Below are positions 5,824 to 57,215 of a stretch of DNA of 64,000 nucleotides, in pieces. The position numbers were made by a program, and so were the translations under genes. The notes beneath the pieces are model-generated. The model was not told the origin of the DNA and did not search any database. It was given only the letters and a program-made list of their open reading frames with translations. The stretch is from contig CAXXWQ010000002.1 of assembly GCA_963674945.2 (NCBI GenBank), forward strand, positions 480,001 to 544,000, in the 5' to 3' direction. This DNA is from an uncultured Desulfosarcina sp. (GTDB taxonomy: Bacteria > Desulfobacterota > Desulfobacteria > Desulfobacterales > Desulfosarcinaceae). Position 1 is the stretch's first letter; every line of letters starts with the position of its first letter.

Positions 5824-5948
5824 GACGACTTCGTAAAAAGCCCGATATTTGCGTTACGCTTCATCCCTCGTCACTGCGACGTATCCAACCATACGTCTCA
5901 TTCCTCGGGACTCGCAAGCCTTGATCTCGAACTTTTTACGAAGTTGTC
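5824..5948. repeat. dispersed palindromic element, type A copy 1 (MITE/ERIC-like)
   Basis: 17-bp terminal inverted repeat GACGACTTCGTAAAAAG / CTTTTTACGAAGTTGTC (1 mismatch); homologous to 12872-12995 (inverted) and 30045-30167. Confidence 0.9.
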
Positions 5949-5968
5949 CGAAATCTGATGGCATGGTT

Positions 5969-8965
5969 CTAAGCACATGCGGTCATGGCCGCTTCAATTT
6001 GCTCGCGACTAAAGTGCCTCATGTCAATGGCTTTCTGGGGACACGACGATGCACAGATGCCGCATCCCTTGCACAATGCGGACAGACCCTGCGCGCGATA
6101 TCCCTTGCCTTCCACCTTGATCAACTGGATCGCGGAAAAGGGGCAGGCCAGTTCGCACAGCCCACAGCCGATGCACAGGGCCTCATCCACGTTGGAGACG
6201 ATGGGCTCGATGGCGATATGGTCTTTCGACAGCACCGTTGCCGCACGGGATGCCGCCGCCTGGGCCTGGGCGATGGATTCTTCCATGAACTTGGGATAAT
6301 GGGCCAGGCCGCAGATATACACGCCGTCCGTGGCGCATTCCACGGGCCGAAGCTTGGCATGGGCCTCGGCGAGAAAATGTTCGGCATTGGTGGAAACCTT
6401 GAACATCCGTGAAATTTCCGTATTGTCTGCCGGTTCGATGGCCGTGGCCAGGTTGACCAGATCCGCGGTGATGGACAGGTCCCGTCCCAGAATAAAATCA
6501 TGAACGATTACTTGCAGACCCTGGTCGGTTTCCCTGACCTCGGGTTTGTGATCCAGGTCATAGCGGATAAAAATTACCCCGAGCTTGCGGGCGTTTTGAT
6601 ACAGTCGTTCTTTTTCGCCATAGGTTCGGATGTCGCGATAGAGAATATAAACGGACCGGTCCGGATTGCTTTCTTTCAAGGCGATGGCGTTCTCGATGGA
6701 AGCCGTGCAGCAAACCTTGGAGCAGTAAGGGCGGTTTGCGTCCCGGGAACCCACGCATTGGATGAAAACCACGCTTTGGGCCGCTTCGACATCCGGATGG
6801 TCCCACAGTTCGTGCCACCGGGTCACGCGGGGATTCTTATGGTAGCCATATTCATCGGTATCGGCCGCCTGTCCACCCATGGCCAGAATGGCTGCCCCAT
6901 GGGAAAGGGTGCGGGTGCTTTCTCCGGTCCTCACCAGGGTTTCGAAATTTCCGACAAACCCGTTGACCGCAGCGATCTCGGTGCCGCAAAGCACTTCGAT
7001 ATCCGGATGGGCGGAGACTTCGGAGACAAGTTTTGCCAGATAGTTCGAAACCTTCGACTTTTTTATGGTTTTCGCGCCGCCCCCCAGTTCACCGGATTTT
7101 TCCACCAATACAGTGGGAAAGCCCTGGTCGGCCAGGCTTTTTGCCGCGGTCATTCCTGCGATTCCACCACCGATCACCAGGGCCGAATGCTGAACATCGA
7201 CGGCATTGGCATCCAACGGTTCCAGCCGGTTGGCCCGGGCCACGGACATGGCAACCAGATCCTTGGCCTTGGCCGTTGCCGTGGCCTTGTCCTTGTGCAC
7301 CCAGGTACATTGGTTGCGGATATTGGCCATCTCGAACAGATAGGGGTTTAAGCCCGCATTGCGAAGGGTCTCTTGAAACAGGGGCTCGTGGGTGCGTGGC
7401 GTGCAGGCCGCCACCACCACCCGGTTCAATTTTTCGGATGCGATCACCTCAGCCATCTTGTCCTGTGTGTCCTGGCTGCAGGTAAAGAGGTTCTCTTCCA
7501 CATAGGCAACGCCGGGCAGTTCTCTGGCAAATGCGGCGATTTCCGGCACATCGGCGATCCCGCCGATATTGGACCCGCAATTACAGACGAACACCCCGAT
7601 TCTGGGCGCATCGCCGGCCACCGGCTGTTCCGGCGGAAATGTTTTTTCCCTGATCAGGCTTCCCCGTGCAGAACTCAGGCTGCGCGCCGCCCCTTCGGCC
7701 GCGGCACTGGCTTCCATGACGGAATCCGGAATGTCTTTGCATCCCCGGGCCACGCCGGCCACATAAATACCGGGTCTGGATGTGGCAATGGGGGCAAGCT
7801 CGTCGGTTTGCACGAATCGGGAGGAATTCAGATCGATGCCCAGGGTTTGGGCCAGTTGCTGCGTGGATTCGGTCGCTTCCATTCCTACGGACAACACCGC
7901 GATGTCAAAGGATTCGTTTACCAACGCGCCGTTTTCGGTCACATACTGAAAATTCAGGGTCCCGTCCGGCTCTTCGGTGATCGTATGAATCCGGGAGCGG
8001 ACAAACCGGACGCCCGCATCCTTGGCCCGTTCGTAATATTTCTCGAAATCCTTGCCATAGGTGCGCATGTCCATGAAAAAGATGGTCGCTTCGACGTCAC
8101 CGTCTACGTGATCATCGACCAGCATCGCCTCTTTTAGGGCATACATGCAACAGACAGAGGAACAGTATGCATTGTCGCATTTATTGAAATCCCGGGATCC
8201 CACGCATTGAAGCCATGCGATCTTGGACACTTCTCCATCGTCCGAAGGCCGTTTGACGGCACCCTTGGTGGGGCCGCCGGCGGAGAGCATCCGTTCGAAT
8301 TCCAGGCTGGTGACCACGTTGGGCATGTTCGAATACTGATAATTGTCCAACCCCTTGGGATCAAAGGCTTTGAATCCGGAGGTAAGAATCACCGAGCCGA
8401 CATTGCGGGTGAGTTCCTTTTCCGTATCTTCGAAATTGATCGCCCCCGTGGGGCAGAATTTTTCGCAGGCACGGCATTTGCCTTTTTTAAAGTAGATGCA
8501 GTTTTCCGCATCGATGGCGTATTTCAGGGGGACTGCCTGGGAATATGGCACGTAGGCGGCTTTTCGCACGGCCAACCCTTCATCATATTCATCGATGACT
8601 TTTTTGGGGCATTTTTCGGCGCAGAGTCCGCAGGCGATGCATTTTTCCATGTCCACATAACGGGGCGCCTGCTTGACGGTGACGGTGAAATTACCAACTT
8701 CCCCGTCGATGCCCGTTACTTCCGACAGGGTCAACAATTCGATATTAAGGTGCCGGCCGACCTCGACCAGCTTCGGCGAGAGTATTCACATGGCGCAGTC
8801 GTTCGTGGGGAAAGTTTTGTCCAACTGGGCCATGACGCCACCGATGGCCGGGGATTTTTCTACAAGATGGACGAAGAATCCGGAATCGGCCAAATCCAGC
8901 GCGGCCTGCATGCCGGAGATCCCGCCGCCAACGACCAACACGGAACCAATCTTTTCCTTTGCCAT
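5969..8965 (-). CDS. hdrA: Heterodisulfide reductase subunit A-like flavoprotein (two FAD domains), selenoprotein (TGA at 8786-8788, codon 60), 998 aa
   Basis: Hand translation from ATG 8965 (AGGAG RBS): [18 protein letters not shown]...[36 protein letters not shown], in frame with ORF 5969-8737; full set of HdrA Cys motifs. Confidence 0.93.
8750..8770 (-). promoter_or_regulatory. putative bacterial SECIS hairpin of hdrA (5969-8965)
   Basis: mRNA CUGGUCG-AGGU-CGGCCGG(CAC) 15 nt after the UGA. Confidence 0.65.
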
Positions 8966-9336
8966 TGCTGTGCTCCTGAATTTTCATGAGATGCATGAAA
9001 TATATGATGCGAAACCAGTAATTCGTTTCGTTACGATCGCGGACGCTGCGAACACTGAATGAAATCTACTATAGAGACAGGACTTTCTTGTCAATAGGAT
9101 TATATCGCCTTTGCGCAAAACCCTGTGATTCGTAAGTGTCATATGCCCAAAAAAATCAATGAAATACGTTTGGAAAAAGTTTTTGATGACGAATTTCAGG
9201 GGGTCATGGTAAATGATGCATGGCCTGGATCGCGAAACTTTCATTTGTCCTCGTTTATGGGTTTTATTGATTCGGATCATTCGTGCGTGTTACTATTTTC
9301 TTATCAAACGCTTTTTCCATGCAAAGATGAAACGAG

Positions 9337-10272: not shown

Positions 10273-10422
10273 TCTTTTGTTCCATCGTTCCCGTTTATGG
10301 ACCGGCGGGTCCGGATCCGATGCCATCTCCTTTTTCGCGAAAATTTGGCTGGTGTAAGGCGAATCCATCCTTATCATATCGATAGTTGACCGATTGGATC
10401 CACTTTTGAGGTTTTTTGTACC

Positions 10423-12816: not shown

Positions 12817-12871
12817 CGCATTTACTTTGCTTTTCAGCATCATGGGTTGATGAAGCTGTAAACGGGTCTTG

Positions 12872-12995
12872 GACGGCTTCGTAAAAAGTACGAGATCAAG
12901 GCTTGCGAACCCCGAGGAATGAGGCGTATTGATGATACGTCGCAGTGACGAGGGGTGAAGTGTAACGCCGATATCGGACTTTTTACGAAGCCGTC
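12872..12995. repeat. dispersed palindromic element, type A copy 2
   Basis: Perfect 18-bp TIR GACGGCTTCGTAAAAAGT / ACTTTTTACGAAGCCGTC; reverse-complement homolog of 5824-5948. Confidence 0.9.
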
Positions 12996-13686: not shown

Positions 13687-13864
13687 GACGGCTTCGTAAA
13701 ACGTTTTTCCAGGCCATAGATGGCCAGACCGTGTTACAAAAGAAACTCATTCTTCCAAGATCTTGCCGATGAATTGGATGGGAAACGCTTTTTATATAAA
13801 GTCTTTTCAATTTGTGTCGATGAACGAGTTCCTTTAGAAATCCGACTTTCTGCGAATTCATCAA
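13687..13864. repeat. dispersed element, type B copy 1 (degenerate)
   Basis: Starts GACGGCTTCGTAAAA, contains TTTCCAGGCCATAGATGGCCAGAC and GGAAACGCTTTTTA; homologous to 41620-41765. Confidence 0.75.
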
Positions 13865-23522: not shown

Positions 23523-23717
23523 TTAGGCTGACGGAATTTCGCCTTTTTCAGCATTCAATCCAACCATCCCAGCATTATGCAATTCGCTTCCCGATGATTT
23601 CGTTTTTAACGGTGCAATGACGATGGTTCTGGCAAGGCTAGCGGGAGGAAGCTGTATGGCCATTACCGCGACGACCGATAACGCAGTCCAGAACCATTGT
23701 CGTTGCACCGTTGTCAT
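23523..23717 (-). CDS. small hypothetical protein with signal-peptide-like N-terminus
   Basis: ATG overlaps upstream stop (ATGA at 23714-23717); hydrophobic WFWTALSVVAVMAI then ASLA; fills the only gap in the operon. Confidence 0.4.
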   Translation of the reverse strand: MTTVQRQWFWTALSVVAVMAIQLPPASLARTIVIAPLKTKSSGSELHNAGMVGLNAEKGEIPSA

Positions 23718-29505: not shown

Positions 29506-30003
29506 TCAGGATGGGGGCAAATGGGGCAGGATGGGCCAACGTTGATCGCCAAGACGAAGCATGAGTCCCATGTCCCCATCTTCCAGATGCTTCGCCATGG
29601 CCATCAGCGCGTGACTGGTGAATCGGACACGTTCGTCTTCTCTTTGCAGATACAAGTGATCGCCCCGGACGAATAATCGGTCGGGATCGAGTTCTACGAT
29701 GGACCCGGTGTTGAGAACCAGCCGAATCGGATTCTCATCGAGGACACGGACGACGAAAAACGGTGTATCCTCATAGGGAAAGTAGACCTTTTCCCGTACG
29801 TCGCCGCGGATTTGGGTGACGAAATAGCCGGCTTCATCCCGACGGATCGAACGATTGAAATAATCGATGATCCGTTTGTGTTCGAAGCGCCCGTGGCGGT
29901 TGTGCCAACGGCCCTGGCCGTCCATCCAGAAGACGGCATCTTCTTTGGCGATGACCACTTCATGCAAGGCGGGCTTGGGCAAAGACGGTTCGGTTTCGTT
30001 CAT
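29506..30003 (-). CDS. hypothetical protein (possibly DUF1285-like)
   Basis: Clean ORF with FWMDGQGRWHN...EKVYFPYEDTPFFV; start uncertain (30003 or 30027). Confidence 0.6.
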   Translation of the reverse strand: MNETEPSLPKPALHEVVIAKEDAVFWMDGQGRWHNRHGRFEHKRIIDYFNRSIRRDEAGYFVTQIRGDVREKVYFPYEDTPFFVVRVLDENPIRLVLNTGSIVELDPDRLFVRGDHLYLQREDERVRFTSHALMAMAKHLEDGDMGLMLRLGDQRWPILPHLPPS

Positions 30004-30044
30004 TCCATTGACATACGATGTAGACAAAACGGGTTACGAACGTT

Positions 30045-30196
30045 TGGATTGGTAAAAAGTCCGATACCGGCGTGACGCTTCATCCTTCGTCACTGCGGCG
30101 TACGATAGGTACGCCTCATCCCTTAAGGACTCGCAATCCTCGATCCCGGGCTTTTTACGAATCCGTCCGAACAGCGACTTTTTACGAGTTCATCAA
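30045..30196. repeat. dispersed palindromic element, type A copy 3 plus extra half-TIR
   Basis: GGATTGGTAAAAAGT ... GCTTTTTACGAATCCGTC with core homologous to 5824-5948; extra GACTTTTTACGAGTTCATCAA at 30176-30196. Confidence 0.85.
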
Positions 30197-30331
30197 TTTT
30201 GAGTTGGTGTATACAGCAATACGGTCTTTCATACAAGTGTCGATACCGACCCCCTACCGGTTGTTGTCGATGGTGTGACAACAACATATATCTTGCGATT
30301 TTATCCGTATTATGCTAGTGAAACGTACACC

Positions 30332-30664
30332 ATGAAACAATATGTGATAGACGAAATCCGTCCTCAAGACTATCAGAAGGTAAAAAAATACCTGGACGAG
30401 ACCCTTGGAGATTCGGGAGTCGATGGGGTGTACTGGCTTCCGGTGGAAGAAGAGATGCTTTCCGCGGCGCAAACGGCGCACCGCTCGTGCGCTCCCTTTT
30501 ACATGGCACTGGAGCTGGAAGAGGGTCGCCTGTCCGGGGAGTTTTTGGTTCGAACCAAGAGCCGTGTTCGTTGCGACTGTATCCGATATGCCGATGTGCG
30601 TCAGCGGGAGTGGCTGATCCGAACTGTCGACGCCATATTTGAGAAACTGGAAATCATTACCTAA
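30332..30664 (+). CDS. hypothetical protein
   Basis: MKQYVIDEIRP...HRSCAPFY...RVRCDCIRYA; first gene of the plsC-rnj run. Confidence 0.7.
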   Translation: MKQYVIDEIRPQDYQKVKKYLDETLGDSGVDGVYWLPVEEEMLSAAQTAHRSCAPFYMALELEEGRLSGEFLVRTKSRVRCDCIRYADVRQREWLIRTVDAIFEKLEIIT

Positions 30665-30685
30665 TTCGTCACAGTCTTTTTGTCC

Positions 30686-31423
30686 ATGCTAAAATCTTTC
30701 CAATACCTTGTGATGACCGTCATTATTCTCCTTTGGACCATTCTTGCAACGGTCATTGTCGGGATTATCGTCATCATCGTTTCCTTTTTCAGCAAAACGG
30801 GTAACGTCCCGCACCTGTTGGCGCGGTTTTGGGCCAACTCCATCCTGTGGATCGGCGGGGTCAAAGTGAAGGTCCACGGCGCGGAAAAGTTGGATCCAAC
30901 GCGATCCTTCATATACATGGCCAACCACCAGAGCAATGCCGATATTCCCGTTGCGCTGGGGCGACTTCCCGTCCAGTTCCGTTGGCTGGCCAAGGAGGAA
31001 CTGTTCAAGATTCCCCTCTTCGGCCGTGCCATGCGGGGGGTCGGTTATATCAGCATCGATCGTTCCAACCGAAAAAAGGCCTTCGAAAGCCTGAAACGGG
31101 CGGCCGAGACCATTCGAAACGGCACCAGCGTGCTGATCTTTCCGGAAGGGACACGCAGTCCGGATGGCCGGATTCTGCCTTTCAAGAAGGGGGGATTCAT
31201 CCTCGCCGTGGATTCGGGCGTTCCCATCGTGCCCATCATCATCCACGGAACGCGGAAGATCATCCCCAAAGGGCATTTCTTGATTCGTCCAGCCCCCATC
31301 GTCATCCAGATTCTGGATCCGGTGGAAACGGCCGGCTACACCCGAAAAAACAAGGATGCCCTGCTTGAAACGATTCGAACCATTTTCATCGATAATTTCG
31401 AAAGCGATGAACGGAGCGTCTAA
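30686..31423 (+). CDS. plsC: 1-acyl-sn-glycerol-3-phosphate acyltransferase
   Basis: NHQSNAD, LAKEEL, IDRSNR, IFPEGTRS, FKKGGF. Confidence 0.92.
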   Translation: MLKSFQYLVMTVIILLWTILATVIVGIIVIIVSFFSKTGNVPHLLARFWANSILWIGGVKVKVHGAEKLDPTRSFIYMANHQSNADIPVALGRLPVQFRWLAKEELFKIPLFGRAMRGVGYISIDRSNRKKAFESLKRAAETIRNGTSVLIFPEGTRSPDGRILPFKKGGFILAVDSGVPIVPIIIHGTRKIIPKGHFLIRPAPIVIQILDPVETAGYTRKNKDALLETIRTIFIDNFESDERSV

Positions 31424-31426
31424 GCC

Positions 31427-33076
31427 ATGCTGAAACTCATTCCACTGGGCGGTCTGGGTGAGATCGGCTTGAACATGATGGTGGTGGAATACGCGGACAC
31501 CATCTTCGTCATCGATGCGGGCATCATGTTTCCCGAAGCGTACATGCTGGGCGTGGATTATGTCATTCCCGACATGGAGTACCTGCGGCAAAACCGCAAC
31601 CGGATTTCCGGCGTGATCCTCACACACGCCCACGAGGATCACATCGGCGCCCTGCCCTTTCTGCTCAGGGAGATCAACGTTCCGGTCTTCGGCACCCCCT
31701 TCACGCTGGGTATCGTTCGGCACAAGCTGGAAGAGTACGAACTTCTGGCCACTGCATCCCTTCACGAGGTGAGGCCGCGGGAGCGGTTGAAGATGGGGCC
31801 CTTCGAGGTGGAATTCATCCGGGTCAATCACAGTGTGGTGGACGGTGTGGGGCTGGCCATCTATACGCCCGTGGGGCTCGTGGTGCATACCGGCGACTTT
31901 AAGATGAGTCAGACGATCATAGACGGGATGATCACCGATGTGAACCGCTTTGCCCAGTGCGGCGACGAAGGGGTACTGGTCCTGCTCTCCGATTCCACCA
32001 ATGTGGAGAAGGAGGGACATACCATCTCCGCCCAGGAGATCGGCAAGGAACTGGCCAGAATCGTCGACGATGCCACCGGCCGCGTGATCGTCGCCCTTTT
32101 CGCCTCCAACATCACGCGCATTCAGCAGATCGTCAATATCGCCAAGGCACGAAATCGAAAGATCGTCTTCAATGGGCGAAGCATCGAGGTGAGCGTGGCC
32201 ATCGCCCGAAAACTGGGATACCTCACCATTCCCGAATCCATGGAGATCGATATCGAAGAGGTCAACACCTATCCGGACGACGAGATCGTCATGATCACCA
32301 CGGGGAGCCAGGGCGAACCCATGTCCGCCCTGGCGCGCATGTCCGCCGGTACACACAAGCAGATCAAGATTCATCACGACGACAAGGTGATTCTCTCTTC
32401 GAAATTCATTCCGGGAAACGAGAAGGCCATCGCCAACATCATCAATAACCTCTACCGCAGGGGTGCCGACGTGGTCTATGAAAAGATATCCAACATCCAC
32501 GTATCCGGTCATGCCTTCCGGGAAGAGCTGAAGATGATGATCAACCTGACCAAACCCAAGTTTTTCATGCCCGTTCACGGCGAATACCGGCACCTGGTGT
32601 TGCATACCCGGTTGGCCCAGGAGACGGGAATTTCCCACGATCGACTGATTCTGGCCCAAAACGGCCAGATGATCGAGTTGAACCAGGGACGTTTCGAGAT
32701 CCGTAAAGGAATTGCTGCCGGTCGTGTCCTCATCGACGGCAAGGGAATCGGCGATGTGGGCCGAAGCGTCCTCAAAGAGCGTCGCATTCTCTCCGAGGAG
32801 GGACTGGTGGTGGTGAACATGGCCTTCGACGAAGAGACCGGCATCGTGGTGTACGGCCCGGACATCGTATCCCGTGGGTTTGTCTTCGAAACGGAGACCG
32901 GTCACCTGTTACAGGATGCCCAGTGCGTCATTCTTGAAATCGTCGAGGATATTACACCGGACGTGCCCAACCGGGTGGATCTTATTCGAAGGCGCCTCCA
33001 GACGGCCCTTAGACAGTATTTTTTCTTTGCCATCGGTCGCAGGCCGGTTATACTCCCCTTTTTGGTGGAGGTCTGA
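31427..33076 (+). CDS. rnj: ribonuclease J
   Basis: PLGGLGEIGLNM, THAHEDHIG, HTGDFK, GSQGEPMSAL, HVSGHA, PVHGEYR. Confidence 0.96.
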   Translation: MLKLIPLGGLGEIGLNMMVVEYADTIFVIDAGIMFPEAYMLGVDYVIPDMEYLRQNRNRISGVILTHAHEDHIGALPFLLREINVPVFGTPFTLGIVRHKLEEYELLATASLHEVRPRERLKMGPFEVEFIRVNHSVVDGVGLAIYTPVGLVVHTGDFKMSQTIIDGMITDVNRFAQCGDEGVLVLLSDSTNVEKEGHTISAQEIGKELARIVDDATGRVIVALFASNITRIQQIVNIAKARNRKIVFNGRSIEVSVAIARKLGYLTIPESMEIDIEEVNTYPDDEIVMITTGSQGEPMSALARMSAGTHKQIKIHHDDKVILSSKFIPGNEKAIANIINNLYRRGADVVYEKISNIHVSGHAFREELKMMINLTKPKFFMPVHGEYRHLVLHTRLAQETGISHDRLILAQNGQMIELNQGRFEIRKGIAAGRVLIDGKGIGDVGRSVLKERRILSEEGLVVVNMAFDEETGIVVYGPDIVSRGFVFETETGHLLQDAQCVILEIVEDITPDVPNRVDLIRRRLQTALRQYFFFAIGRRPVILPFLVEV

Positions 33077-33078
33077 CG

Positions 33079-33221
33079 AGTGCTCATCCAGAAATGGCCA
33101 ATTTGCCCGATATCTTCGTTGCGCGAAAAATTTTATCCTAGGAATATTACACATATGCCTGTGGTAAAATTTTTCGTGCGCCTTGATCTCGACCAAATTT
33201 TCCTATTTCTGGACGAACACT
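33079..33221. repeat. dispersed palindromic element, type C copy 1
   Basis: TIR AGTGCTCATCCAGAAATGG / CTATTTCTGGACGAACACT; inverted homolog at 36743-36935. Confidence 0.85.
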
Positions 33222-33240
33222 AACGAGTTTTCGTGGACCT

Positions 33241-35412
33241 ATGAAAAAAGAAATCATCGGCATCCTTTTTTTCTTCATGGTCGTCTTCAGCCTGATCAGT
33301 TTGCTCTCCTTTGATCCGGAAGATCCCTGTCTTTTTTTCAATGCCGGATCGGGGGCCACGGTTCACAATCTCTTCGGTGTCTTCGGTGCCAATTTTGCCG
33401 GTATTCTCGTGGGATTGTTCGGTATCGGCGCATTCTGGATCCCGTTCCTCAGCCTGTTGGGCAGCATTCTCTTTTTCGGCAAGTCGCCGGGTCCTGCACT
33501 TCTCCCATTGACCGCCGGCGGTTTCCTGTTGATCGTCACCACCGGCAGCCTGCTGGCTTTGCGGCAGGACCACTATGCAATTTTCGGAAGCGCCTTCAGC
33601 GCCGGCGGAATCGTCGGTTCCTCTTTGGGCGCCTTTATCGTTCACTACACCAATCCCGCCGGCGGGTCCATCATTCTGCTGCTCTCCTGGCTTATCGGAT
33701 TTATCCTGGCCACCGGCTTTTCCGTGGTGGCGTTTTACCGTCGCATCAAGGTAGCCAATGCGGCGCTGTTCGAACGAATCGCCACAATCGTGATCAAATG
33801 GAAAGAGCGTCGCCAAAAGAGCCGCAAGCGTAAAAAAATCCTTCAGTCCGAGAAAAAGCGAAAGAAGGAGAAGGTGGAGATCAAGACACCCGAGGCCAAA
33901 CCGGTTCCCAATAAACCGGTTCCCAAGCAAGCCGTTTTCGATTTCATGAAGGATGATTCGGCCTTTTCTTTACCATCGGTCAACTTCCTGGATGATCCCA
34001 AGGCCCGCCCCCAATCCACCAGCAATGAAAACCTTCGCATGCAGTCCCGTCTCCTGGAAAAGAAGCTGGAGGATTTCGGCGTACACGGAAAGGTGGTGGC
34101 CGTAACACCGGGACCGGTGATCACCACCTTCGAGTATGAACCTGCCCCGGGTGTCAAGATCAACCGCGTGGTCAATCTGACCGACGACCTGGCCCTGGCA
34201 CTTCGCGCCATCAGCATCCGGATTGTAGCGCCCATACCGGGCAAGGCGGTCATCGGCGTGGAGATTCCCAATACCGACCGGGAAACGGTACGTTTCAAGG
34301 AGATGATCCTCTCCGATTCCTTCGAAAAAGCGGACAGTACACTGACGTTGTGTCTGGGAAAGGACATCGTGGGCAATCCGGTTTCGGCGGGGTTGGAAAA
34401 AATGCCTCACCTGCTCATCGCCGGCGCTACGGGAGCGGGAAAAAGCGTGGCCCTGAACACCATGATCTGCAGCCTCCTCTACAAGCTTACCCCGGAACAG
34501 GTGAAACTCATCATGGTGGACCCCAAACGCATCGAGCTTTCCATGTATGACGGCATCCCCCACCTGATCACGCCGGTGGTCACCGACGCGAAAAAGGCCA
34601 CCAACGCCCTGTTTTGGGCCGTCAAGGAGATGGAACACCGATACGAGCTGCTCTCTGCGATGAAGACGCGCAACGTCGGCCAGTACAATCGAAAGATGAA
34701 AAAATCACCGCCCCCGGCGCCGGCCGAAGGTGAGGCGGCACCCATCGAAATGCCGACCCATTTGCCGTATATCGTCATCATCATCGACGAGTTGGCCGAT
34801 CTCATGATGGTCGCATCCCGAGACGTGGAGGTGGCCCTTACCCGGCTGGCCCAGATGGCCCGGGCCGCCGGCATTCACCTGATCCTGGCCACCCAGAGGC
34901 CGTCGGTGGACGTGCTCACCGGTATCATCAAGGCCAACTTTCCCACTCGTTTGACCTTCCAGGTCTCCTCCAAGACCGATTCGCGCACCATCATCGACAC
35001 CAACGGCGCAGAGAGTCTGCTGGGAATGGGGGACATGCTTTTCCTTCCACCGGGAACCGGACGCCTTCAGCGCATCCACGGCGCTTACATCAGCGAGGCG
35101 GAGCTTTCCCGTGTCACGGAGTTTTTGAAAAAACAGCAGCGTCCCGACTATGACAGGAGTATCGTCCAGACCCCAGTAAAAGAGGAGCAGGAGGAAGGGG
35201 AAAAAGAGTACGATTCCCGCTACGACGATGCGGTGGCACTGGTCACCCAGGCAGGCCAGGCCTCCATTTCCATGGTGCAGCGACACCTTCGCATCGGATA
35301 CAACCGGGCCGCGCGGATCATCGAGATGATGGAACAAGAAGGTGTCATCGGTCCCCAGGACGGGGTGAAGCCGAGGGAGGTGTTAGTAAGATCAAACTAC
35401 GACACCCCTTGA
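33241..35412 (+). CDS. ftsK: DNA translocase FtsK
   Basis: 4TM N-terminus, PHLLIAGATGAGKS, IIDELADLMM, LATQRPSVDV, gamma domain QRHLRIGYNRAARI. Confidence 0.96.
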   Translation: MKKEIIGILFFFMVVFSLISLLSFDPEDPCLFFNAGSGATVHNLFGVFGANFAGILVGLFGIGAFWIPFLSLLGSILFFGKSPGPALLPLTAGGFLLIVTTGSLLALRQDHYAIFGSAFSAGGIVGSSLGAFIVHYTNPAGGSIILLLSWLIGFILATGFSVVAFYRRIKVANAALFERIATIVIKWKERRQKSRKRKKILQSEKKRKKEKVEIKTPEAKPVPNKPVPKQAVFDFMKDDSAFSLPSVNFLDDPKARPQSTSNENLRMQSRLLEKKLEDFGVHGKVVAVTPGPVITTFEYEPAPGVKINRVVNLTDDLALALRAISIRIVAPIPGKAVIGVEIPNTDRETVRFKEMILSDSFEKADSTLTLCLGKDIVGNPVSAGLEKMPHLLIAGATGAGKSVALNTMICSLLYKLTPEQVKLIMVDPKRIELSMYDGIPHLITPVVTDAKKATNALFWAVKEMEHRYELLSAMKTRNVGQYNRKMKKSPPPAPAEGEAAPIEMPTHLPYIVIIIDELADLMMVASRDVEVALTRLAQMARAAGIHLILATQRPSVDVLTGIIKANFPTRLTFQVSSKTDSRTIIDTNGAESLLGMGDMLFLPPGTGRLQRIHGAYISEAELSRVTEFLKKQQRPDYDRSIVQTPVKEEQEEGEKEYDSRYDDAVALVTQAGQASISMVQRHLRIGYNRAARIIEMMEQEGVIGPQDGVKPREVLVRSNYDTP

Positions 35413-35556
35413 CGATAGTCCCCAAAACGGCGCCTTGCGGCCCAGATCTTCGTTCTCAAAATTTTCAAGTCCTCAACGTAGCGCTGCTACGCCTGCGGCT
35501 TAAAAATTTCTGCGGCCTCGATCTGAACCACAATTCACCATTTTGTGAACTATCGT
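35412..35556. repeat. dispersed palindromic element, type D copy 1
   Basis: TIR ACGATAGTCCCCAAAACGG / CCATTTTGTGAACTATCGT; core TCCTCAACGTAGCGCTGCTACGCCT shared with 57075-57215. Confidence 0.8.
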
Positions 35557-35671
35557 ATTGTATCGTAAATTTGGCCTGCCATTTCTTAAGGAAAACGGGC
35601 AGAATCACGACGTATTGAAGAATTGTGGTGCGTCAACTATTAATAAAATTCAAAATATTGCATCAGTACAT

Positions 35672-35694
35672 GTAGGAGCGGGCCATGCCCGCGA
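35672..35694 (+). repeat. GTAG-type REP sequence (single copy here)
   Basis: GTAG-GA-GCGGGC-CAT-GCCCGC-GA: GTAG tetranucleotide followed by a GC-rich palindrome. Confidence 0.6.
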
Positions 35695-35702
35695 TTTTTT
35701 TA

Positions 35703-35808
35703 TAAAAAGCTTTTCCCATTGAATTCGTCTGCAAATAATGGAAGGATGAATTCCTATCGTATTATTGTTTGGCCATATTTGGCCTGGAAAAGCTTTTTAC
35801 GATGGGCG
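35703..35808. repeat. dispersed element, type B copy 3 (inverted)
   Basis: 35764-35790 is the exact reverse complement of 41639-41665; TAAAAAGCTTTTCC / GGAAAAGCTTTTTA arms. Confidence 0.8.
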
Positions 35809-35835
35809 AAATTTTGTAACCGGAGACCACTATCC

Positions 35836-36462
35836 ATGATTCCTGACCAAGCGTTTGTCGATACAATCAAGGGCTTTCTGGATCCCGAAGAGGGAAGAGG
35901 GCTTTACGATTTTGCATTGAAGGCGTCGACAATGGGCCCATGCCTGGAGATTGGCAGCTACTGCGGTAAGTCGGCCGTTTACCTGGGGTGTGCCTGCAGG
36001 GAAAACAACGCCACTTTGTTTTCCATCGACCACCATCGCGGCTCCGAGGAGCAGCAGCCCGGAGAAGAGTACTTCGATGCCTCTCTTCTGGATTTCTCGA
36101 CCCTTTCCCCGAACACCCTCCCGCTCTTTCGACAGACGCTGGAACGTGCCGGGCTGGAGGAGACGGTGATTCCTGTGGTCAGTCGTTCGGACGTCGTGGC
36201 CAGAAACTGGGCCTCACCGCTGTCACTGGTCTTCATCGACGGCGGCCATGCATTCGATACCGCTCTTTCGGATTATGAGTGCTGGTCCGATCATATCCTT
36301 CCCGGCGGCTTTCTATTGATACACGATCTTTTTGAAAATCCCGAGGATGGCGGCCAGGCGCCCTTTGAGGTTCACCAGATCGCCCTTGCCTCCGGACGTT
36401 TTGAGGTCGTCTCCCGTATCAAATCCCTTGGAGCCTTGCGGCGGAAGCAGGATCCGGTGTAA
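35836..36462 (+). CDS. class I SAM-dependent methyltransferase
   Basis: LEIGSYCGKS, SIDHH, LVFIDGGH, PGGFLLIHD; start MIPDQ at 35836 (GGAG RBS), the longer ORF start lies inside a repeat. Confidence 0.88.
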   Translation: MIPDQAFVDTIKGFLDPEEGRGLYDFALKASTMGPCLEIGSYCGKSAVYLGCACRENNATLFSIDHHRGSEEQQPGEEYFDASLLDFSTLSPNTLPLFRQTLERAGLEETVIPVVSRSDVVARNWASPLSLVFIDGGHAFDTALSDYECWSDHILPGGFLLIHDLFENPEDGGQAPFEVHQIALASGRFEVVSRIKSLGALRRKQDPV

Positions 36463-36491
36463 AGCGGCGAAGATGCGGTGTTGGAAAGTGA

Positions 36492-36571
36492 GAGACGAAG
36501 GACGATTGGAAGAGGGATGAAAAAGCAATGCCTGTATCGTCCCTCGTCCCTCGTCCCGCATCCTTCGTCCT
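36492..36571. repeat. heptamer-repeat hairpin, probable terminator
   Basis: (TCGTCCC)3-GCATCCT-TCGTCCT at 36537-36571 with complementary GAGACGA/AGGACGA/GGGATGA units upstream. Confidence 0.65.
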
Positions 36572-36742
36572 TCTTGTTCTCAATTAAATTGGTCACGAAC
36601 TTAAAAATAAGCGATGTCCAAATGCATTCTCCCATGGCGGCAATGGGACTATGTGTTGTAGCAAGATGAAAAATCCGATATAGTTGATTTTAAATTGCCG
36701 ATTTTGGTTCCGACAAACTGTTTCAAGACTGGACATTTAACG

Positions 36743-36935
36743 GCGTTCGTCCAGAAATAGGAAAATTTGGTCGAGATTGAGGCGCCCGACCAATTTTATC
36801 TCGGGTTTTGCCGGAAGTGCCCGAAGGAAATCCCCTCGGGGTGCATATGGTTGATATTCCGAGGATACAATTTTTCGCGCAACGTGGATATCGGCCAAAG
36901 CTAAGATTGGCTTGGCCATTTCTGGATGGTGCACT
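36743..36935. repeat. dispersed palindromic element, type C copy 2 (inverted, with insertions)
   Basis: GTTCGTCCAGAAATAGGAAAATTTGGTCGAGAT is the reverse complement of the right end of 33079-33221; ends GCCATTTCTGGATG. Confidence 0.85.
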
Positions 36936-36950
36936 AAGGATCGATTGGCC

Positions 36951-37409
36951 ATGGCCCAGTGGAACATGCCCGTACAACCCGATGAATTGCTCTACGCGCT
37001 GAAAGTGGGGAATGCGGCGGCATTGAATCAGATGCCCCTGTCCCACTTGCCGGGCCAGGGACTGGAATTGGTGGATGAGGATACCGGTCAGGTCCAGACG
37101 GTCCGCTTTGCCGACAACGCCGTCAACCGGTTCGGCGCGGCGATCGCCCGGGAGTTCGACAATATGGGATCCAAGTTTTTTTCGTTGATGACCCGTATCG
37201 GTGCGCTGATGCGACTTCTCGAGGATGAACGGGCCAAGCCCTACGTCCAGTCGGAGGGAGAATACACCAGGATTCGAAACGCAATGATCGAGGCCATGGC
37301 ATCCTTTCCCATCTCATCGGATGGGTTCATGGATGTGGATCGATTCTTCACGCTTCTTGCGCATTCCAAAGACGACCTCATCTCGCCAACCGCCAATTTT
37401 CAACACTGA
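36951..37409 (+). CDS. hypothetical protein
   Basis: 152-aa ORF from MAQWNMP (AAGGA upstream); no recognisable motif; converges on the NuoG-N-like gene. Confidence 0.6.
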   Translation: MAQWNMPVQPDELLYALKVGNAAALNQMPLSHLPGQGLELVDEDTGQVQTVRFADNAVNRFGAAIAREFDNMGSKFFSLMTRIGALMRLLEDERAKPYVQSEGEYTRIRNAMIEAMASFPISSDGFMDVDRFFTLLAHSKDDLISPTANFQH

Positions 37410-41619: not shown

Positions 41620-41765
41620 GACGGCTTCGTAAAAAGCGTTTCCAGGCCAAATATGGCCAAACAATCGCATGCAAGAAACTCGTTCTGTTTTTTTTGCAGA
41701 TAGACGGAAACGAGGGAAACGCTTTTTACGAAGGCGTCCGAAATCCGATTCTTACGAGTTCATCA
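41620..41765. repeat. dispersed element, type B copy 2 plus extra half-TIR
   Basis: 24-bp TIR GACGGCTTCGTAAAAAGCGTTTCC / GGAAACGCTTTTTACGAAGGCGTC (41620-41738), then CTTACGAGTTCATCA. Confidence 0.88.
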
Positions 41766-49910: not shown

Positions 49911-50046
49911 AAGAATCCAGGCGTCAGCATTCAGAATCCAGAATAAGGTATTCGCCTTCGGCTCGATCCATCTATATGAAGAAGAAATTCCAAATTACAA
50001 GCACCAAATAACAAAGGGTTCATAAACATCACCATTCTGACTCCTG
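49911..50046. repeat. dispersed stem-loop element, type E copy 2
   Basis: AAGAATCCAGGCGTCAG...TTCGCCTTCGGCTCGATCCATCT and closing CATTCTGACTCCTG, as at 14643-14776. Confidence 0.8.
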
Positions 50047-50228
50047 CAGTTTTCCATGATCGCAGCGCATCCCCATTGCAGGAGGGGCCATCGCCGGGCT
50101 TTCTGGATACGGACTTTTTATATCGCCGTCGCCCTTGCTGCTCGACAATCACCCATTTCAGGTTATATTAAACACGTTATCAAAGAATCAACATTATAAC
50201 GACAGATGGGGCATGAAAGGATAAAGAT

Positions 50229-50984: not shown

Positions 50985-50994
50985 CACCCCTGCC

Positions 50995-53145
50995 ATGAAG
51001 AGATCCGCAAACAGCAGCACCGGCCATCGCCGCCGATACCCACCGAGGCGCAGACCCGGTGAAAAAAGCGGCCATGACCGGGCAGACATCTCTCCCGGCG
51101 CACATCCTCATCTCAAGGCCGTCTTTTCGGGTATCGGTGTCCCCAAAAACAGGCCCTTTGCCCCGGATCGGTTCCAGGTCGAGGCCGTGACCGCAATGAC
51201 GGCGTCCGACTGCCTGGTGACCGCCCCCACCGGCGCCGGTAAGACATGGATTGCCGTGCAGACCATTCGCAGGACCTTTGAAAACGGCGGACGGTCATGG
51301 TACGCCTCTCCCCTCAAGGCCCTCACCAATGCCAAGCTCATGGAATTTTCGGCCATCTTCGGACCGGAGAATGTGGGCATCCTCACCGGTGATCGCAAGG
51401 AGCGGCCGGATGCGCCCGTCATCGTGGGGACCACCGAGATACTGAGAAATCAGCTTTACGACGCCATGCACCAGGGTGTCTTCTTGAACACCGATCTCGT
51501 GGTGCTGGACGAAGCCCATTTTTTGGGCGACGAGGATCGCGGCGTGGTGTGGGAAGAGACAATGATCTACCTGCCGTCACGCATTCCGTTGCTTCTTCTT
51601 TCGGCAACGGTGGGAAACGCCGGGGAAATTGCCCGCTGGCTGACAACGATCCGGGCTCGCCCATGCCAGGTGGTGGTCGAGACCAGCAGACCGGTACCCC
51701 TCTATCCGTTGGTGTTTCATCCGTCGGGAACGTTGCTTCCCCTCATGGCCAAAGGGGGAAAGGGCGCCAAGACGCTCCATAAAAAGGTTGCGGAGATGAT
51801 CGGGAAAAAGAATGATGCAACCTTGCCCGGACGGCGGGGCCTTCCTCCCTTCGGTGATATCCTCCGGGTACTCAAGTCATTCGATCTTTTGCCGGCCATC
51901 TTCTTTTTGAAGAGCCGCAGCGATTGCGACAACGCCCTGAAGCTGAGCCACGGCGCCGTTCCTCTTTCCGACGACCGGAAGGCACGGATCTTTTATCGGG
52001 TGCGGCAGCTTACCGAAAACTCCGAGCACCTCGCCCGGCACCGCCATCGCATTCACCTGGAACAGGCCGGTGTCGGCGCCCACCACAGCGGCCATCTGCC
52101 CGGATGGAAGTTGGTGGTGGAAAACTTGATGAGCGAGGGGTTGCTCAGCGCCGTATTTGCCACTTCCACGGTTGCCGCGGGGGTCAACTTCCCGGCCCGT
52201 ACGGTGGTTTTTTTTAATTCAGACCGGTTCAACGGCGCAGAGTTCGTTCCCCTGGACGCCACACAACTACACCAAATGACCGGCCGTGCCGGCCGTCGGG
52301 GAAAGGACAAGATCGGTTTCGCCCTGGCCGTTCCCGGTCGCTACATGGATCTGCGCCTGGTGGCCCGTCTTCTCTCCTCCCGGCCGGAAAACATCCACAG
52401 CCGTATCCGTATCAATTTTTCCATGGTCCTGAACCTCCTTTTATCCCATTCGCCCCCGCAGGTGGAAGAACTTCTCAAGCGTTCCTTCGCCACCTGGCTC
52501 CTCGTCGCCCAGTTCGAGGACAGCCGTCGAAAAAGCAGGATGGCAGGCGTTCACGAAGTACTCTGGGAAGACTTTCTCCACCATCTGGATTTTCTCAAGG
52601 AGACCGGTTTCGTGGACGATGAAGACCGGCTCACCGAAGACGGCATCTGGGCATCCCAGCTTCGGGTGGACCAGCCGATTCTCGTGGCCGAATGCCTTCG
52701 AAAGGGGCTCTTGCCCGACACGGATCCGGCGCAGATGGCCGGTGTATTTGCATGTTTCGTCAATGAAAAAGAAACCGATGATCGCATGGAGGGACGATTG
52801 GTGCCAAACCGGCTGAAAAAGACGGTCGGCCGTATCCAGAAAAAGTTGTCCGGCTTTTCCCGTCACATGAAATCCAGAGGGTTCGAGGTTCGTCCGTTTT
52901 ACCTGCGGCCTGCGGCGATGACCCATGCCTGGGCCGCCGGCGTCCCCTGGGAGGTGATCACCAGGGATTATGGCATGGCCGAGGGGAATCTGGCCATGCT
53001 GATGATGCGTACCGCCGACAATCTCCGCCACACGGCAAACCTCGTGGACGTCTTTCCCGATGCGGCCGCCACGGCCCGCCAGGCCATCGATCTGATCATG
53101 CGTCCACCGGTGGTGGAAGAAGATCGTCTTGACGAGCCCGATTGA
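50995..53145 (+). CDS. Ski2/HelY-like DExH RNA helicase
   Basis: APTGAGKT, SPLKALTN, TTEILRN, DEAH, LSAT, HHSG, QMTGRAGRRG; start moved to MKRSA to avoid overlap with cooC. Confidence 0.9.
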   Translation: MKRSANSSTGHRRRYPPRRRPGEKSGHDRADISPGAHPHLKAVFSGIGVPKNRPFAPDRFQVEAVTAMTASDCLVTAPTGAGKTWIAVQTIRRTFENGGRSWYASPLKALTNAKLMEFSAIFGPENVGILTGDRKERPDAPVIVGTTEILRNQLYDAMHQGVFLNTDLVVLDEAHFLGDEDRGVVWEETMIYLPSRIPLLLLSATVGNAGEIARWLTTIRARPCQVVVETSRPVPLYPLVFHPSGTLLPLMAKGGKGAKTLHKKVAEMIGKKNDATLPGRRGLPPFGDILRVLKSFDLLPAIFFLKSRSDCDNALKLSHGAVPLSDDRKARIFYRVRQLTENSEHLARHRHRIHLEQAGVGAHHSGHLPGWKLVVENLMSEGLLSAVFATSTVAAGVNFPARTVVFFNSDRFNGAEFVPLDATQLHQMTGRAGRRGKDKIGFALAVPGRYMDLRLVARLLSSRPENIHSRIRINFSMVLNLLLSHSPPQVEELLKRSFATWLLVAQFEDSRRKSRMAGVHEVLWEDFLHHLDFLKETGFVDDEDRLTEDGIWASQLRVDQPILVAECLRKGLLPDTDPAQMAGVFACFVNEKETDDRMEGRLVPNRLKKTVGRIQKKLSGFSRHMKSRGFEVRPFYLRPAAMTHAWAAGVPWEVITRDYGMAEGNLAMLMMRTADNLRHTANLVDVFPDAAATARQAIDLIMRPPVVEEDRLDEPD

Positions 53146-53274
53146 AACGGCTGGATCCAGACCCCATAGCAAGGCGGAAAACGACGGGAAAGCGGCGCAT
53201 GTGTGATTACATGTGCGTATTCTGCGTCGTTTTCCAACGCCGTTAGGGGAATGACGGGTTTTTCAACCGGGCTC
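53134..53274. repeat. palindromic element, type F (same inner architecture as types A, C, D)
   Basis: TIR GAGCCCGATTGAAA / TTTCAACCGGGCTC; inner CAAGGC-GGAAAACGACG ... CGTCGTTTTCC-AACGCCG; fills the gap between convergent genes. Confidence 0.75.
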
Positions 53275-54124: not shown

Positions 54125-54566
54125 CACCAAAAGATCTCCGTTTGTTCAGAGGAACGCAAAACCAAAAAAATCAAAAAGTAACAAGCAAAAAAAATACCAC
54201 ATCCCATGACAATGGGCCAAAGAATGATCCACATTGTCCTGTTTATCCAGGAAATGGTAGCTTCTTTACCTCATTCAATCATGAAAGCGTTTCCGTTTTC
54301 ACGTGCCGCAGGTCGGTATACTTTTATGTCAAACAAGATGCGAATCCTTCGCAACTGTTACAATAATCACAAATCCAATGGTAAACCGCCGCCGACACCA
54401 GATCCGTCGGTATGAAATGCGAATTTCTTATAAAAGGAGGCACTGTCATGCATAGGATAAAACACTTGCTATCTGTCACGGGTTTTGAAAAAACTCTTTT
54501 CATGCACTGCCTGTAAACGCAGGTCCCGATCTTTCAAGTTGTTGTAAGGCGCGATAGGAGGTTGCT

Positions 54567-56327: not shown

Positions 56328-56366
56328 GGATGGGTGTTGGACCGTTACCTGAATTGCATTACCTGA

Positions 56367-57071
56367 TTGCATCCAAACACAGTTGAACTGGCCGGTGACA
56401 TTACCGTCATCGACGATCGAATCGCGGATGCGCTGCTCACCATACTCAAGCGCAAAGACCTTTCCGGAAAGCTTCGCGCGAGGGCCGCCATTACCATGGG
56501 GCCCGTACTGGAATATGTTGACATGGACGGATTCGACGATCCGGAGGACGTGAGCATTTCAAAGGAGATGTTTCACAAGATCCAAAATACCTTTCATACC
56601 CTTTATCAGGATCTGACGGTTCCCAAATACGTGCGACGACGGGTGCTGGAAGCGTCGGTTCGCGCACCCCAAAATTGGCACCACGAGGCGATCCGGTGGG
56701 CCTTTTCCAGCAATGATCCCGATTGGCGACTGACGGCGGTTTTTTCCATGCGATGGGTCCGCGGTTTCAACGACCAGATACTCCAAGCCCTTGAGAGCGA
56801 TGACCCGGACATTTACTACCAGGGCGTTTGCGCCGCGGGCAACTGGACATTGGATGGGGCGTGGTCACACGTATCAAAACTCGTCAAAGGGCGCGTTTCC
56901 GACAAAAGGCTTCTTCTGGCCGCCATTGAAGCCATCGCCAACATTCGTCCGCGAGAGGCGGCCATGCTGCTGCTGGATCTGACCGATGACGAGGACGACG
57001 ATATCGTCGAAGCGGCCCATGAGGCCCTGGTGATTGCCGAGGGGTTTGTGGATTTTGACGAGGATGTCTAA
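56367..57071 (+). CDS. HEAT-repeat-like helical protein, start uncertain or 5'-truncated
   Basis: Repeated helical units (LRARAAITMG, VRRRVLEA, WRLTAVFSM, IVEAAHEAL); only a TTG start without RBS. Confidence 0.65.
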   Translation: MHPNTVELAGDITVIDDRIADALLTILKRKDLSGKLRARAAITMGPVLEYVDMDGFDDPEDVSISKEMFHKIQNTFHTLYQDLTVPKYVRRRVLEASVRAPQNWHHEAIRWAFSSNDPDWRLTAVFSMRWVRGFNDQILQALESDDPDIYYQGVCAAGNWTLDGAWSHVSKLVKGRVSDKRLLLAAIEAIANIRPREAAMLLLDLTDDEDDDIVEAAHEALVIAEGFVDFDEDV

Positions 57072-57074
57072 TTT

Positions 57075-57215
57075 TGCCCATCCAGAAACGGCATCTCATG
57101 CCCCATGCCGGCGTTCTCGCTCCGCCGAAATCCTCAACGTAGCCCTGCTACGCCTCCGGTTTCAACGTCGCTGCGGCCTTGGCCTGGGCCATGATCTACC
57201 ATTTCTGGATGGACA
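57075..57215. repeat. dispersed palindromic element, type D core with type C ends
   Basis: TIR TGCCCATCCAGAAACGG / CCATTTCTGGATGGACA; core TCCTCAACGTAGCCCTGCTACGCCT. Confidence 0.85.

Follow-up and report, generated by a model that had tools for sequence, protein, structure and literature searches.

We find that the short repeats in a 64,000-nucleotide stretch of DNA from an uncultured Desulfosarcina sp. (the window) are non-autonomous DDE MITEs: they are short and multi-copy, and carry the ends and target duplications of such elements. A fuller reading, to which we give an even chance, is that MITEs of several DDE end types share an ERIC/Correia-type core that probably acts as a folded single DNA strand and probably aids their spread.

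Elements of the window and their common core

The sequence-only reading had listed eight elements of four sequence types with an ERIC-like fold. All eight carry their motifs where it placed them and represent four independent families, but a ninth, at 23608-23712, had been overlooked (Table 1). The hairpins that it delimited are real but some of its boundaries need correcting: the left end of the family A mobile unit lies 27 nt further out than the hairpin, and the true ends of families B and C are GTG...CAC, with 36-nt arms. Likewise, the GATC motif of the 12872 copy is present but starts at 12894, not 12895. The central TA-N7/8-TA, described as usual, occurs in seven of the eight elements and is absent from the apex of that at 53134, and the 30045 copy, singled out as the most degenerate, does read GAGGA...CACGCC. 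With its 27-nt extension, the family A mobile unit departs from mirror geometry.

Table 1 Core-bearing elements of the window and one core-less comparison element
Position	Strand	Type	Layout	Gene context	Model R2 run on the window
5824..5948	-	Family A MITE	IS1182-like ends; AAGGC 5918-5922, AACGCA 5850-5855; left extension (27 nt) reduced to a remnant at about 5949-5957		20.6 bits, held out
12849..12995	+	Family A MITE	Hairpin 12872-12995; AAGGC 12898-12902, AACGCC 12964-12969; left extension 12849-12871 decayed	Right end partly supplies the TGA stop of a PspC-domain gene	30.3 bits, held out
23608..23712	+	Short-core family F3, ninth element	26/46/27 geometry	Right end 1 nt from stop codon	17.2 bits, held out
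30045..30194	-	Family A MITE, degenerate core	GAGGA 30137-30141, CACGCC 30069-30074; 27-nt left extension 30168-30194 intact; right end truncated		No match
33080..33220	-	Family B MITE	ISNCY-type ends GTG...CAC; 6-bp target duplication, 5/6 positions kept	Between RNase J and FtsK genes	In training set
35413..35555	-	Family C MITE	36/65/36	Right end at FtsK stop codon	66.3 bits
36743..36934	+	Family B MITE	Small hairpin inserted in core, 13-nt insertion in right arm		No match
41620..41765	-	Family G, core-less comparison element	IS1182-like ends and 27-nt extension as in family A, other interior		
53134..53274	+	Family D MITE	GAG...CTC ends	Between convergent genes, overlaps both stop codons	In training set
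57074..57216	-	Family C MITE	ISNCY-type ends; 36/65/36	Right end 3 nt past stop codon	79.1 bits

The core-bearing families all show the AAGGC/AACGCC double bulge, the purine loop and, at the apex, TA-N7-TA. Their spacing keeps to a ruler: the motif lies 26 or 36 nt in from the end, and 46-47 or 64-67 nt separate the two motifs. Genome-wide, the repeat families occupy about 290 loci (291 counted), roughly 230 of them near full length; the elements are non-coding, multi-copy and 105-152 nt long, and 1 of 231 lies within a predicted gene.

The window elements fold far better than their shuffles (seven DNA folds, z -4.1 to -8.2; 0/200 shuffles). The two motifs are mirror-symmetric within 2 nt in six of the eight elements, the exceptions being 36743 (36/48), owing to the insertion in its right arm, and 53134 (37/33). 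A mirror-placed motif pair arose in 1.3-2.5% of dinucleotide shuffles and 0.8-1.5% of palindrome-preserving shuffles per element, a lenient control, because these same sequences supplied the motif, which was broadened to take in 30045, and because eight copies count as no more than four independent families. Inside inverted repeats across the genome, the real pair gave 91 matches against 3-44 for eight permuted pairs, controls that family copies inflate. Flanking stems change sequence yet keep pairing, as the sequence-only reading had held: covariation was found in the stems, and the N7 spacer holds one further covarying pair, as in a hairpin stem.

Transposase ends and target duplications

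Family A copies with the extension have an exact 6-bp target duplication in 19 of 58 cases (shuffle mean 0.8, maximum 4); at the inner, hairpin end the count was 0/50. In family B, 5 of 51 copies have an exact 6-bp duplication (shuffle 0.4, maximum 3) and 13 are within one mismatch (2.9, maximum 7); family C in this genome gave 0/8. A comparison of filled and empty sites yielded one pair within this genome, in which the right arm of the 36743..36934 element corresponds to the empty site of a family A insertion elsewhere, with a 6-bp duplication. Reads of four contig runs gave no clean empty site, a blank that does not count as evidence. In 108 distinct copies from other genomes, the end is 36 nt from AAGGC and three footprints were seen: 6-bp duplications with GTG ends (14/37; shuffle 0.9), 4-bp duplications with GAG/GAA ends (10/19; shuffle 0.6) and 4-bp duplications with GG ends (6/10; shuffle 1.1, maximum 5).

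These ends match known transposases in families A (IS1182-like) and B/C (ISNCY), and only partially in family D. Autonomous ISNCY elements (NF033593; 425 bits versus a cut-off of 325) have GTG...CAC ends and 6-bp TANNTA duplications in relatives, and this genome has an intact copy with an exact duplication and an intact transposase gene. The first 20 nt of the relatives' IS1182-like elements equal those of the family A extension, with 6-7 bp AANNTT duplications; their transposases are partial proteins scoring 171 and 141 bits, below the family cut-off, and a search of this genome for such a transposase found none. Young copies of family F3 in a relative are TA-flanked with ends TATAG...CTATA, although the TA flanks are indistinguishable from fixed ends (16/20 versus shuffle 15.3), and no autonomous IS with F3-type ends, IS630 included, was found. 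The end classes are ISNCY (6 bp), IS1182-like (6 bp), two 4-bp classes and one TA class.

The terminal 12-20 nt and the target duplications of ISNCY and IS1182-like ISs match families B/C and A, respectively, and both arms of the MITE hairpins resemble the right end of the IS; these ISs, in contrast, encode a transposase and lack the core, which was found at 0/11 autonomous IS ends. We ruled out an origin of the MITEs as simple internal deletions of ISNCY or IS1182-like ISs, given IS ends without the core. Because core-less family G has 49 loci with IS1182-like ends, the core is not needed for ends of that type; among ISNCY-ended elements, 10 of 64 have no recognizable core and several are clean 43-59-nt hairpins. 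Genomes with DUF772 transposases showed no co-occurrence with the core (10/27 versus 36/93 genomes, p=1; many assemblies are fragmented).

The sequence-only reading had looked to a dedicated HUH/RAYT enzyme or recombinase for mobilization; the ends and target duplications instead follow ordinary DDE transposase types. That an HUH (RAYT-like) or tyrosine-recombinase-type enzyme reads the folded core and moves the element now seems improbable. The TA-N7-TA apex resembles a recombinase spacer, but its N7 holds the covarying pair noted above. A truncated B fragment and a C copy do have a RAYT-like gene nearby, at distances of about 470 nt and 1.6 kb, respectively, but neither of the two Y1 genes of the genome is bracketed by elements, and duplication length follows end type, as for DDE enzymes. 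The search for a gene repeatedly flanked by the motif returned, beside 158 loci, only generic histidine kinases and open reading frames read through the element itself; no Rpn or PD-(D/E)XK partner matched in this genome. As a separate candidate, a mobilizer gene enclosed by the ends of an element was rejected, since long end pairs held ordinary genes. One-strand folding with conserved bulges is reminiscent of REP/RAYT recognition, and in the available text on REP/REPIN-RAYT systems, REPtrons and TIRtrons (PMC3733652) those repeats are likewise intergenic, near stop codons and strand-specific bulged hairpins; REPs, however, are described there as 20-40 nt, GTAG/CGTC-tagged and flanking an HUH gene, whereas our elements are 105-152 nt, bear DDE footprints and flank no gene. 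The tag is unpaired at the foot of REP hairpins, but the CGTC of family A is paired, duplications are 4-6 bp and no RAYT gene is bracketed by the repeats.

Likeness to ERIC, Correia and other repeats

The statement that ERIC has the same layout was accurate: in the K-12 aceF-lpd ERIC, AAGGT lies at 26 nt, AACGCC 67 nt beyond it, and the right arm is 26 nt long. The wider claim of an ERIC-related, structure-conserved superfamily gained support from the covariation and from held-out models. Trained without ERIC, the model ranked four ERIC copies top in 40 kb (31.3, 24.6, 17.6 and 13.7 bits), with only 3 of 13 K-12 copies below E 0.05; by eye, 5 of 13 keep the right motif in register, and many have lost it. 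ERIC (IRU, RU-1) is a hairpin of about 126 nt with 26/67/26 spacing, as against 26/66-67/26 in family A, with AAGG(C/T), a GA-type loop 6 bp below the apex and AACGC, and it too sits behind stop codons. Its termini are TA, whereas those of families A-D are of ISNCY, IS1182-like or other type and carry 4-6-bp duplications; the arms of families B-D measure 36 nt against its 26. No full-length primary-sequence match to the 127-bp ERIC consensus was found: the likeness is one of motifs, and the arms are unrelated. We take ERIC to be the same as MITEEc1_IS630. The latter is a named element (PMC11602168), and no ERIC motifs other than the TIRs were known as of a 2008 review, in its available text (PMC2229807).

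Three Correia copies in 12.5 kb matched the held-out model at E 1.5e-4 to 1.2e-3. In 13 of 14 distinct Correia/NEMIS elements of Neisseria, the distance from the end to AAGGC is exactly 26 nt, as in the short-arm families; the apex is GTA-N7-TAC and AACGC lies about 26 nt from the other end, so that the 106-bp form (26/47/27) matches the layout of family F3 (26/46/27). Correia differs in several respects: its 155-bp form carries a 50-bp insert that binds IHF, its purine loop has no right-hand GA, its arms bear no sequence relationship to those of families A-D, and its 26-bp terminal repeat agrees with family F3 in no more than the first five or six letters. BOX, RUP and RPE presumably resemble these elements as well. 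A multicopy family of Geobacter metallireducens, found also in Desulfotalea and listed among predicted short RNAs, has a central palindrome identical to the family C apex; the portion of that report available (PMC2700814) calls it a possible regulatory RNA, not a MITE, and draws no link to ERIC or Correia. Rfam 15 gave no match to the elements at gathering score (two chance-level hits lay elsewhere in the window), and plasmid annotations of single-strand origins gave three chance-level hits. With the same motif letters and distances, the core recurs in Desulfobacterota, in a phylum sample titled Firmicutes (17/141 genomes), in ERIC and in Correia; a literature search found no treatment of ERIC, Correia and the sulfate-reducer repeats as one family.

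Strand, folding and a possible mechanism

The AAGGC strand folds better under DNA parameters in nearly all copies (A 73/76, B 25/25, C 13/13, D 5/5, F3 9/9), which upholds the one-strand part of the proposed ssDNA/RNA element. The other part fared worse: the case for a role of the core in mRNA loses strength, as the strand that folds better mostly runs antisense to flanking genes (111 of 167 co-oriented gaps, p 2.5e-5). In 19 of 112 family A copies, a total of 22 rare variants appear on both arms as mirror images (permutation 0.86, maximum 5), and the identity of the apical loop is 0.47 against 0.87-0.89 for the element body. Mirrored private mutations and the hypervariable loop point to folding as DNA. 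Since template switching acts on any inverted repeat (available text of PMC5941160), the mirrored variants show folding during replication, not function. In family F3, the arms are 84% self-complementary and 55-58% alike between copies, against 91% for the core; that these arms are inverted target copies was rejected, as 20 copies in one relative share 90%-identical arms. No lagging-template bias was seen (75 versus 111), in an analysis made unreliable by weak GC skew.

An alternative that keeps the MITE part but has the core work as RNA, in mRNA decay or termination at gene ends or as a small antisense RNA, so that copies are tolerated or retained directly behind stop codons, is possible but doubtful. 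Stop codons within 20 nt do cluster at the right end of the element (122 versus 33 at the left), by the ORF-only rule 68 versus 32 in family A and 36 versus 12 in family B. Core-less family G, however, has the same polarity (20 versus 8, though often nested in A), and it is weak in other sets (26 versus 13, p 0.053; 7 versus 1; ERIC 5 versus 3). Scans of 29900-37100 for sigma-70 promoters and terminators stayed near shuffle levels. G.U and tandem G.A pairs suit RNA, and the energy gap between strands is larger with RNA than with DNA parameters; against this, the conserved purine-rich fold usually lies on the non-mRNA strand, Rfam gave no match and post-insertion mismatches in family A arms are only mildly G.T-biased (90 G.T, 64 A.C, 79 other). 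Processing is on record for related repeats, in the accessible passages on orientation-dependent RNase E decay of ERIC and RNase III cleavage of Correia (PMC2229807; PMC10969869), and the Geobacter family with the family C apex is listed as predicted short RNAs (PMC2700814).

We consider it unlikely that the core has no reader and is an heirloom of one ancient MITE, its bulges keeping the palindrome imperfect and so escaping deletion or cleavage, with covariation from arm copying. Part of the covariation may indeed stem from arm-to-arm copying rather than selection, because mirrored private variants give a non-selective source; core-less and core-deleted elements exist, many K-12 ERICs lack the right motif, and families B, C, D and F6 also have mid-arm primary sequence in common. 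Yet a bulge of any kind would interrupt a palindrome, and what recurs across lineages is one set of letters (AA, AAC, GA, bulged A) and distances, while arms turn over completely; moreover, the GA/GCA loop of family A is mirror-swapped, which suggests selection on shape. Spread through a reverse-transcribed RNA intermediate, with the hairpin formed by the cDNA, is barely credible. The folding strand is often the mRNA complement and the apical loop is hypervariable, but the elements have transposase-type ends and duplications. A reverse transcriptase occurs in 23 of 31 genus genomes; a two-contig relative with copies of both A and F3 gave no RVT_1 match.

Returning to a core that folds as DNA, a hairpin or partial cruciform would form in vivo, and template switching would copy changes from arm to arm, both ends changing together, such that a family could drift from one transposase to another through linked end changes. 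With intervals of roughly one helical turn between them (10 nt in each arm), the double bulge, purine loop and apex would face the same way, so that a rigid partner, perhaps the transpososome itself or a conserved host protein that binds DNA structures, would read all three from one side. The 'turn' rule is drawn from just two length classes in each arm, and a difference between 10 and 11 nt does not tell DNA from RNA. We more tentatively suggest that ERIC, Correia and the sulfate-reducer and Firmicutes repeats form one superfamily with an unrecognized transposition adapter, in which folded DNA read on one face by a conserved bacterial protein lets elements too short to loop use at least four unrelated DDE end types, and arm copying lets a lineage switch transposases through a simultaneous change of both ends.

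Few bacterial repeats have been known for longer than ERIC (1990-91) and Correia (1986-88), which the reviews consulted treat as separate families. A shared core at a fixed, turn-quantized distance from interchangeable transposase ends would link ERIC, Correia and repeats of distant phyla. In this genome, a MITE coexists with an intact cognate ISNCY transposase, core-less elements provide natural controls and the bulges are well defined. More generally, when a long palindrome in DNA shows covariation, copying between its arms may be the source, and a functional RNA need not be involved.

Repeat families and the fold of their core

The eight elements that a sequence-only reading had described as one ERIC-like superfamily were all confirmed with their motifs, and each is a member of a genome-wide family. 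Profile searches of the 7.08-Mb, four-contig genome yielded 291 non-overlapping loci, partial ones counted, which fell into the core-sharing MITE families A (153), B (83), C (20), F3 (14), F6 (11) and D (8), plus two singletons; no Rfam family matches the elements. No relationship links the genes that flank them, among which are PspC-domain, RNase J, FtsK, helicase and kinase genes. The gene content of the window includes Hdr/Mvh-like Fe-S proteins, which would fit a sulfate reducer of the Desulfobacterota. A motif scan found the AAGGC/AACG pair within inverted repeats 91 times, versus 3–44 times for eight permuted pairs. The expected enrichment over shuffled sequence was also seen in placement, the pair being mirror-symmetric in 6/8 copies and in a ninth element versus 0.8–2.5% in shuffles, a lenient control because the motif was picked from these same copies. 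The genome also contains other abundant palindromic families that are core-less, including tandem arms of the GAAGTCAGAA type (37 clustered copies) and of the CACAGAC type (24). IS types present in several copies number at least 12.

The AAGGC strand folds into an outer stem, an AA bulge, three GGC/GCC pairs, an AAC bulge and an inner stem. Beyond the inner stem come one bulged A, the GNA/GA purine loop and six pairs that end in TA/TA; a single variable pair and a terminal loop of roughly 5 bases close the structure. The purine loop is differently arranged in A and F3 (in A, GA on the left and GCA on the right). Across 24 copies of B, C, D, F6 and relatives, the same sequences from which the 28-pair structure was drawn, 87.9% of cells pair, versus 73.0% in column shuffles (0/500) and 26–40% when the structure is slid. 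The covariation anticipated earlier was recovered by RNAalifold, which returned 22 pairs from the 24-copy alignment, 16 of them with double changes. Spacing is quantised: AAGGC lies 26 nt (A, F3) or 36 nt (B, C, D, F6) from the end, and AACGCC lies 46–47 nt from AAGGC in F3 and 64–67 nt in the remaining families. Among 108 distinct copies from other genomes, in which the search pattern constrained the core distance, pairing falls beyond position 36–37. Small hairpins of 27–30 nt, present in several B and F6 copies as insertions at fixed points of the core (immediately before the apex or immediately before AAGGC), look like a second, REP-like layer targeting the folded core.

Positions of individual features (window coordinates unless a replicon is named)
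Feature	Position	Remark
Ninth element	23608-23712	
Family G copy	13687-13862	
Family G copy	35697-35802	
Family G copy	41620-41765	
Small inserted hairpin	~36808-36838	
Tandem heterodisulfide-reductase/MvhD-like gene sets	465-28866	several sets; source of most coding repeats
B-end joint	33223 to 33080	contigs in two runs link B right end to left end, three bases between; a tandem copy or a circle, possibly from another organism
RAYT-like Y1 gene (this genome)	C3:1895754-1896722	323 aa; C-terminal helix-turn-helix-like tail; no obvious bracketing repeats
Second K-12 repeat (L283, L285)	1007650-1007860, 2543620-2543820	

Ends, target duplications and transposases

A 27-nt extension precedes the family A hairpin, and exact 6-bp duplications flanked 19/58 A copies with the extension (shuffle mean 0.8) and 0/50 at the inner end. 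In one filled/empty pair, a 152-bp A copy with a clean 6-bp duplication sits inside a B-type arm, and the element at 36743 shows that arm in its empty state. IS1182-like elements of relatives, which duplicate 6–7 bp, begin with the 20 nt that start the family A extension; their partial proteins scored 171 and 141 bits, below the cut-off of 270, and no IS1182-like element was found in this genome. The ends of families B and C are also those of ISNCY elements (425 bits against a cut-off of 325), which duplicate 6-bp TANNTA and of which an intact copy with an exact duplication is present in this genome; duplications were exact for 5/51 B copies and near-exact for 13, and were found for 0/8 C copies. 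Three end types in other genomes gave three footprints, of 6 bp (14/37), 4 bp (10/19) and 4 bp (6/10), the last two presumably belonging to IS1182 and IS5. Young F3 copies in another genome (G023) end in TATAG...CTATA, as Correia elements do; a search for an IS630 with such ends found none. The core occurred in 0/11 autonomous IS ends. The elements are shown to be MITEs of the DDE type that have a single core but exchangeable ends.

Family G, a core-less MITE with the IS1182-like ends of family A, has 49 loci genome-wide and is often nested in the A right arm. At two loci in relatives (L093, L125), autonomous ISNCY and IS1182-like elements directly abut B and A copies and share the target hexamer.

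The dedicated partner gene suspected earlier (HUH/RAYT, transposase or recombinase) did not emerge from neighbour and partner searches for genes flanked by the motif, and DUF772 transposases and the core do not co-occur (10/27 versus 36/93 genomes). We regard mobilisation by a dedicated HUH enzyme or recombinase as improbable.

Possible folding as DNA or RNA, and gene orientation

Several signs suggest folding in DNA. Rare variants mirrored on both arms numbered 22, in 19 of 112 A copies, versus 0.86 by permutation, and 99 were confined to one arm. F3 arms in this genome are 84% self-complementary, yet 55–58% alike between copies, with the core at 91%. Template switching between arms, a known route to such homogenisation (PMC5941160), can change both ends together, so covariation by itself is no proof of selection. 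It is the conserved unpaired letters that require a functional explanation, and inheritance of the core without any reader appears unlikely. The A apical loop is hypervariable (identity 0.47 versus 0.87–0.89 for the body), differing at 1.8/5 bases even where bodies differ by at most 5 of 109. Of the ISNCY-ended elements, 10/64 have no recognisable core. We give an even chance to the reading that the core is retained because, as folded DNA, it would help the element to propagate, a partner dependent on helical phasing being its reader. Spread by reverse transcription seems extremely improbable.

Action of the core as RNA is a less likely alternative, on which orientation bears. The AAGGC strand is the better folder in nearly all anchored copies and lies antisense in 111/167 gaps between co-oriented genes, as judged from our own crude calls of 5327 genes. 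The right end has a stop codon no more than 20 nt away in 122 cases, the left end in 33. Under an ORF-only rule this polarity recurs elsewhere, though weakly (26 versus 13; 7 versus 1; ERIC, 5 versus 3), and core-less family G has it as well (20 versus 8), so it may be a property of the element end or reflect selection that keeps the stronger hairpin out of mRNA. For Yersinia ERIC, decay that depends on orientation is reported (PMC2229807), and PMC2700814 catalogues among predicted RNAs a family from Geobacter whose apex is that of family C.

Likeness to ERIC and Correia elements

R2, a structure model trained without A, F3, ERIC and Correia, matched F3 and two of the three A copies within the window and missed the elements at 30045 and 36743. 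The proposed match to ERIC held in part: the four best R2 matches (rough E-values 5e-6, 3e-4, 0.02 and 0.25; 13 ERIC loci, 40 kb) were all ERIC copies, but seven of the 13 were unmatched and two lay in the noise. On the whole K-12 chromosome, R2 gave four matches at E up to 1, two of ERIC type (6e-4, 0.009) and two apex-only copies of another repeat. The K-12 ERIC between aceF and lpd has a 26/67/26 geometry (nt from end to left motif, which reads AAGGT in this copy, from left motif to AACGCC, and in the right arm), and manual reading placed AACGC in register in 5/13 ERIC loci. The second K-12 repeat carries a CCGGAG...TA-N6/7-TA...GAGGA apex module without AAGGC/AACGCC, which suggests that apex and double bulge are separable modules. 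Correia loci, retrieved by the end pattern published in PMC2649163, have AAGGC at 26 nt in 13/14 distinct elements, a GTA-N7-TAC apex and, in the 106-bp form, a 26/47/27 geometry; three copies matched R2 at rough E-values of 1.5e-4 to 1.2e-3.

R2 matches occurred in 28/121 genomes of the same phylum and in 17/141 genomes from the phylum to which a Firmicutes-titled genome belongs. Viral, prophage-like contigs (L021–L027) carry the family C apex with flanking motifs drifted from AAGGC/AACGCC, and one (L024) has two such apex copies amid Rhs-like genes. A MITE of Geobacter, Chunjie, is also on record. Full-text searches of mainly open-access literature revealed no paper in which a common core joins such repeats to ERIC and Correia.

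The repeats are real: they are MITEs carrying a cross-phylum core of putative function. The mobiliser type is ordinary; the shared core unites two classic repeats, ERIC and Correia, whose mobility becomes testable.
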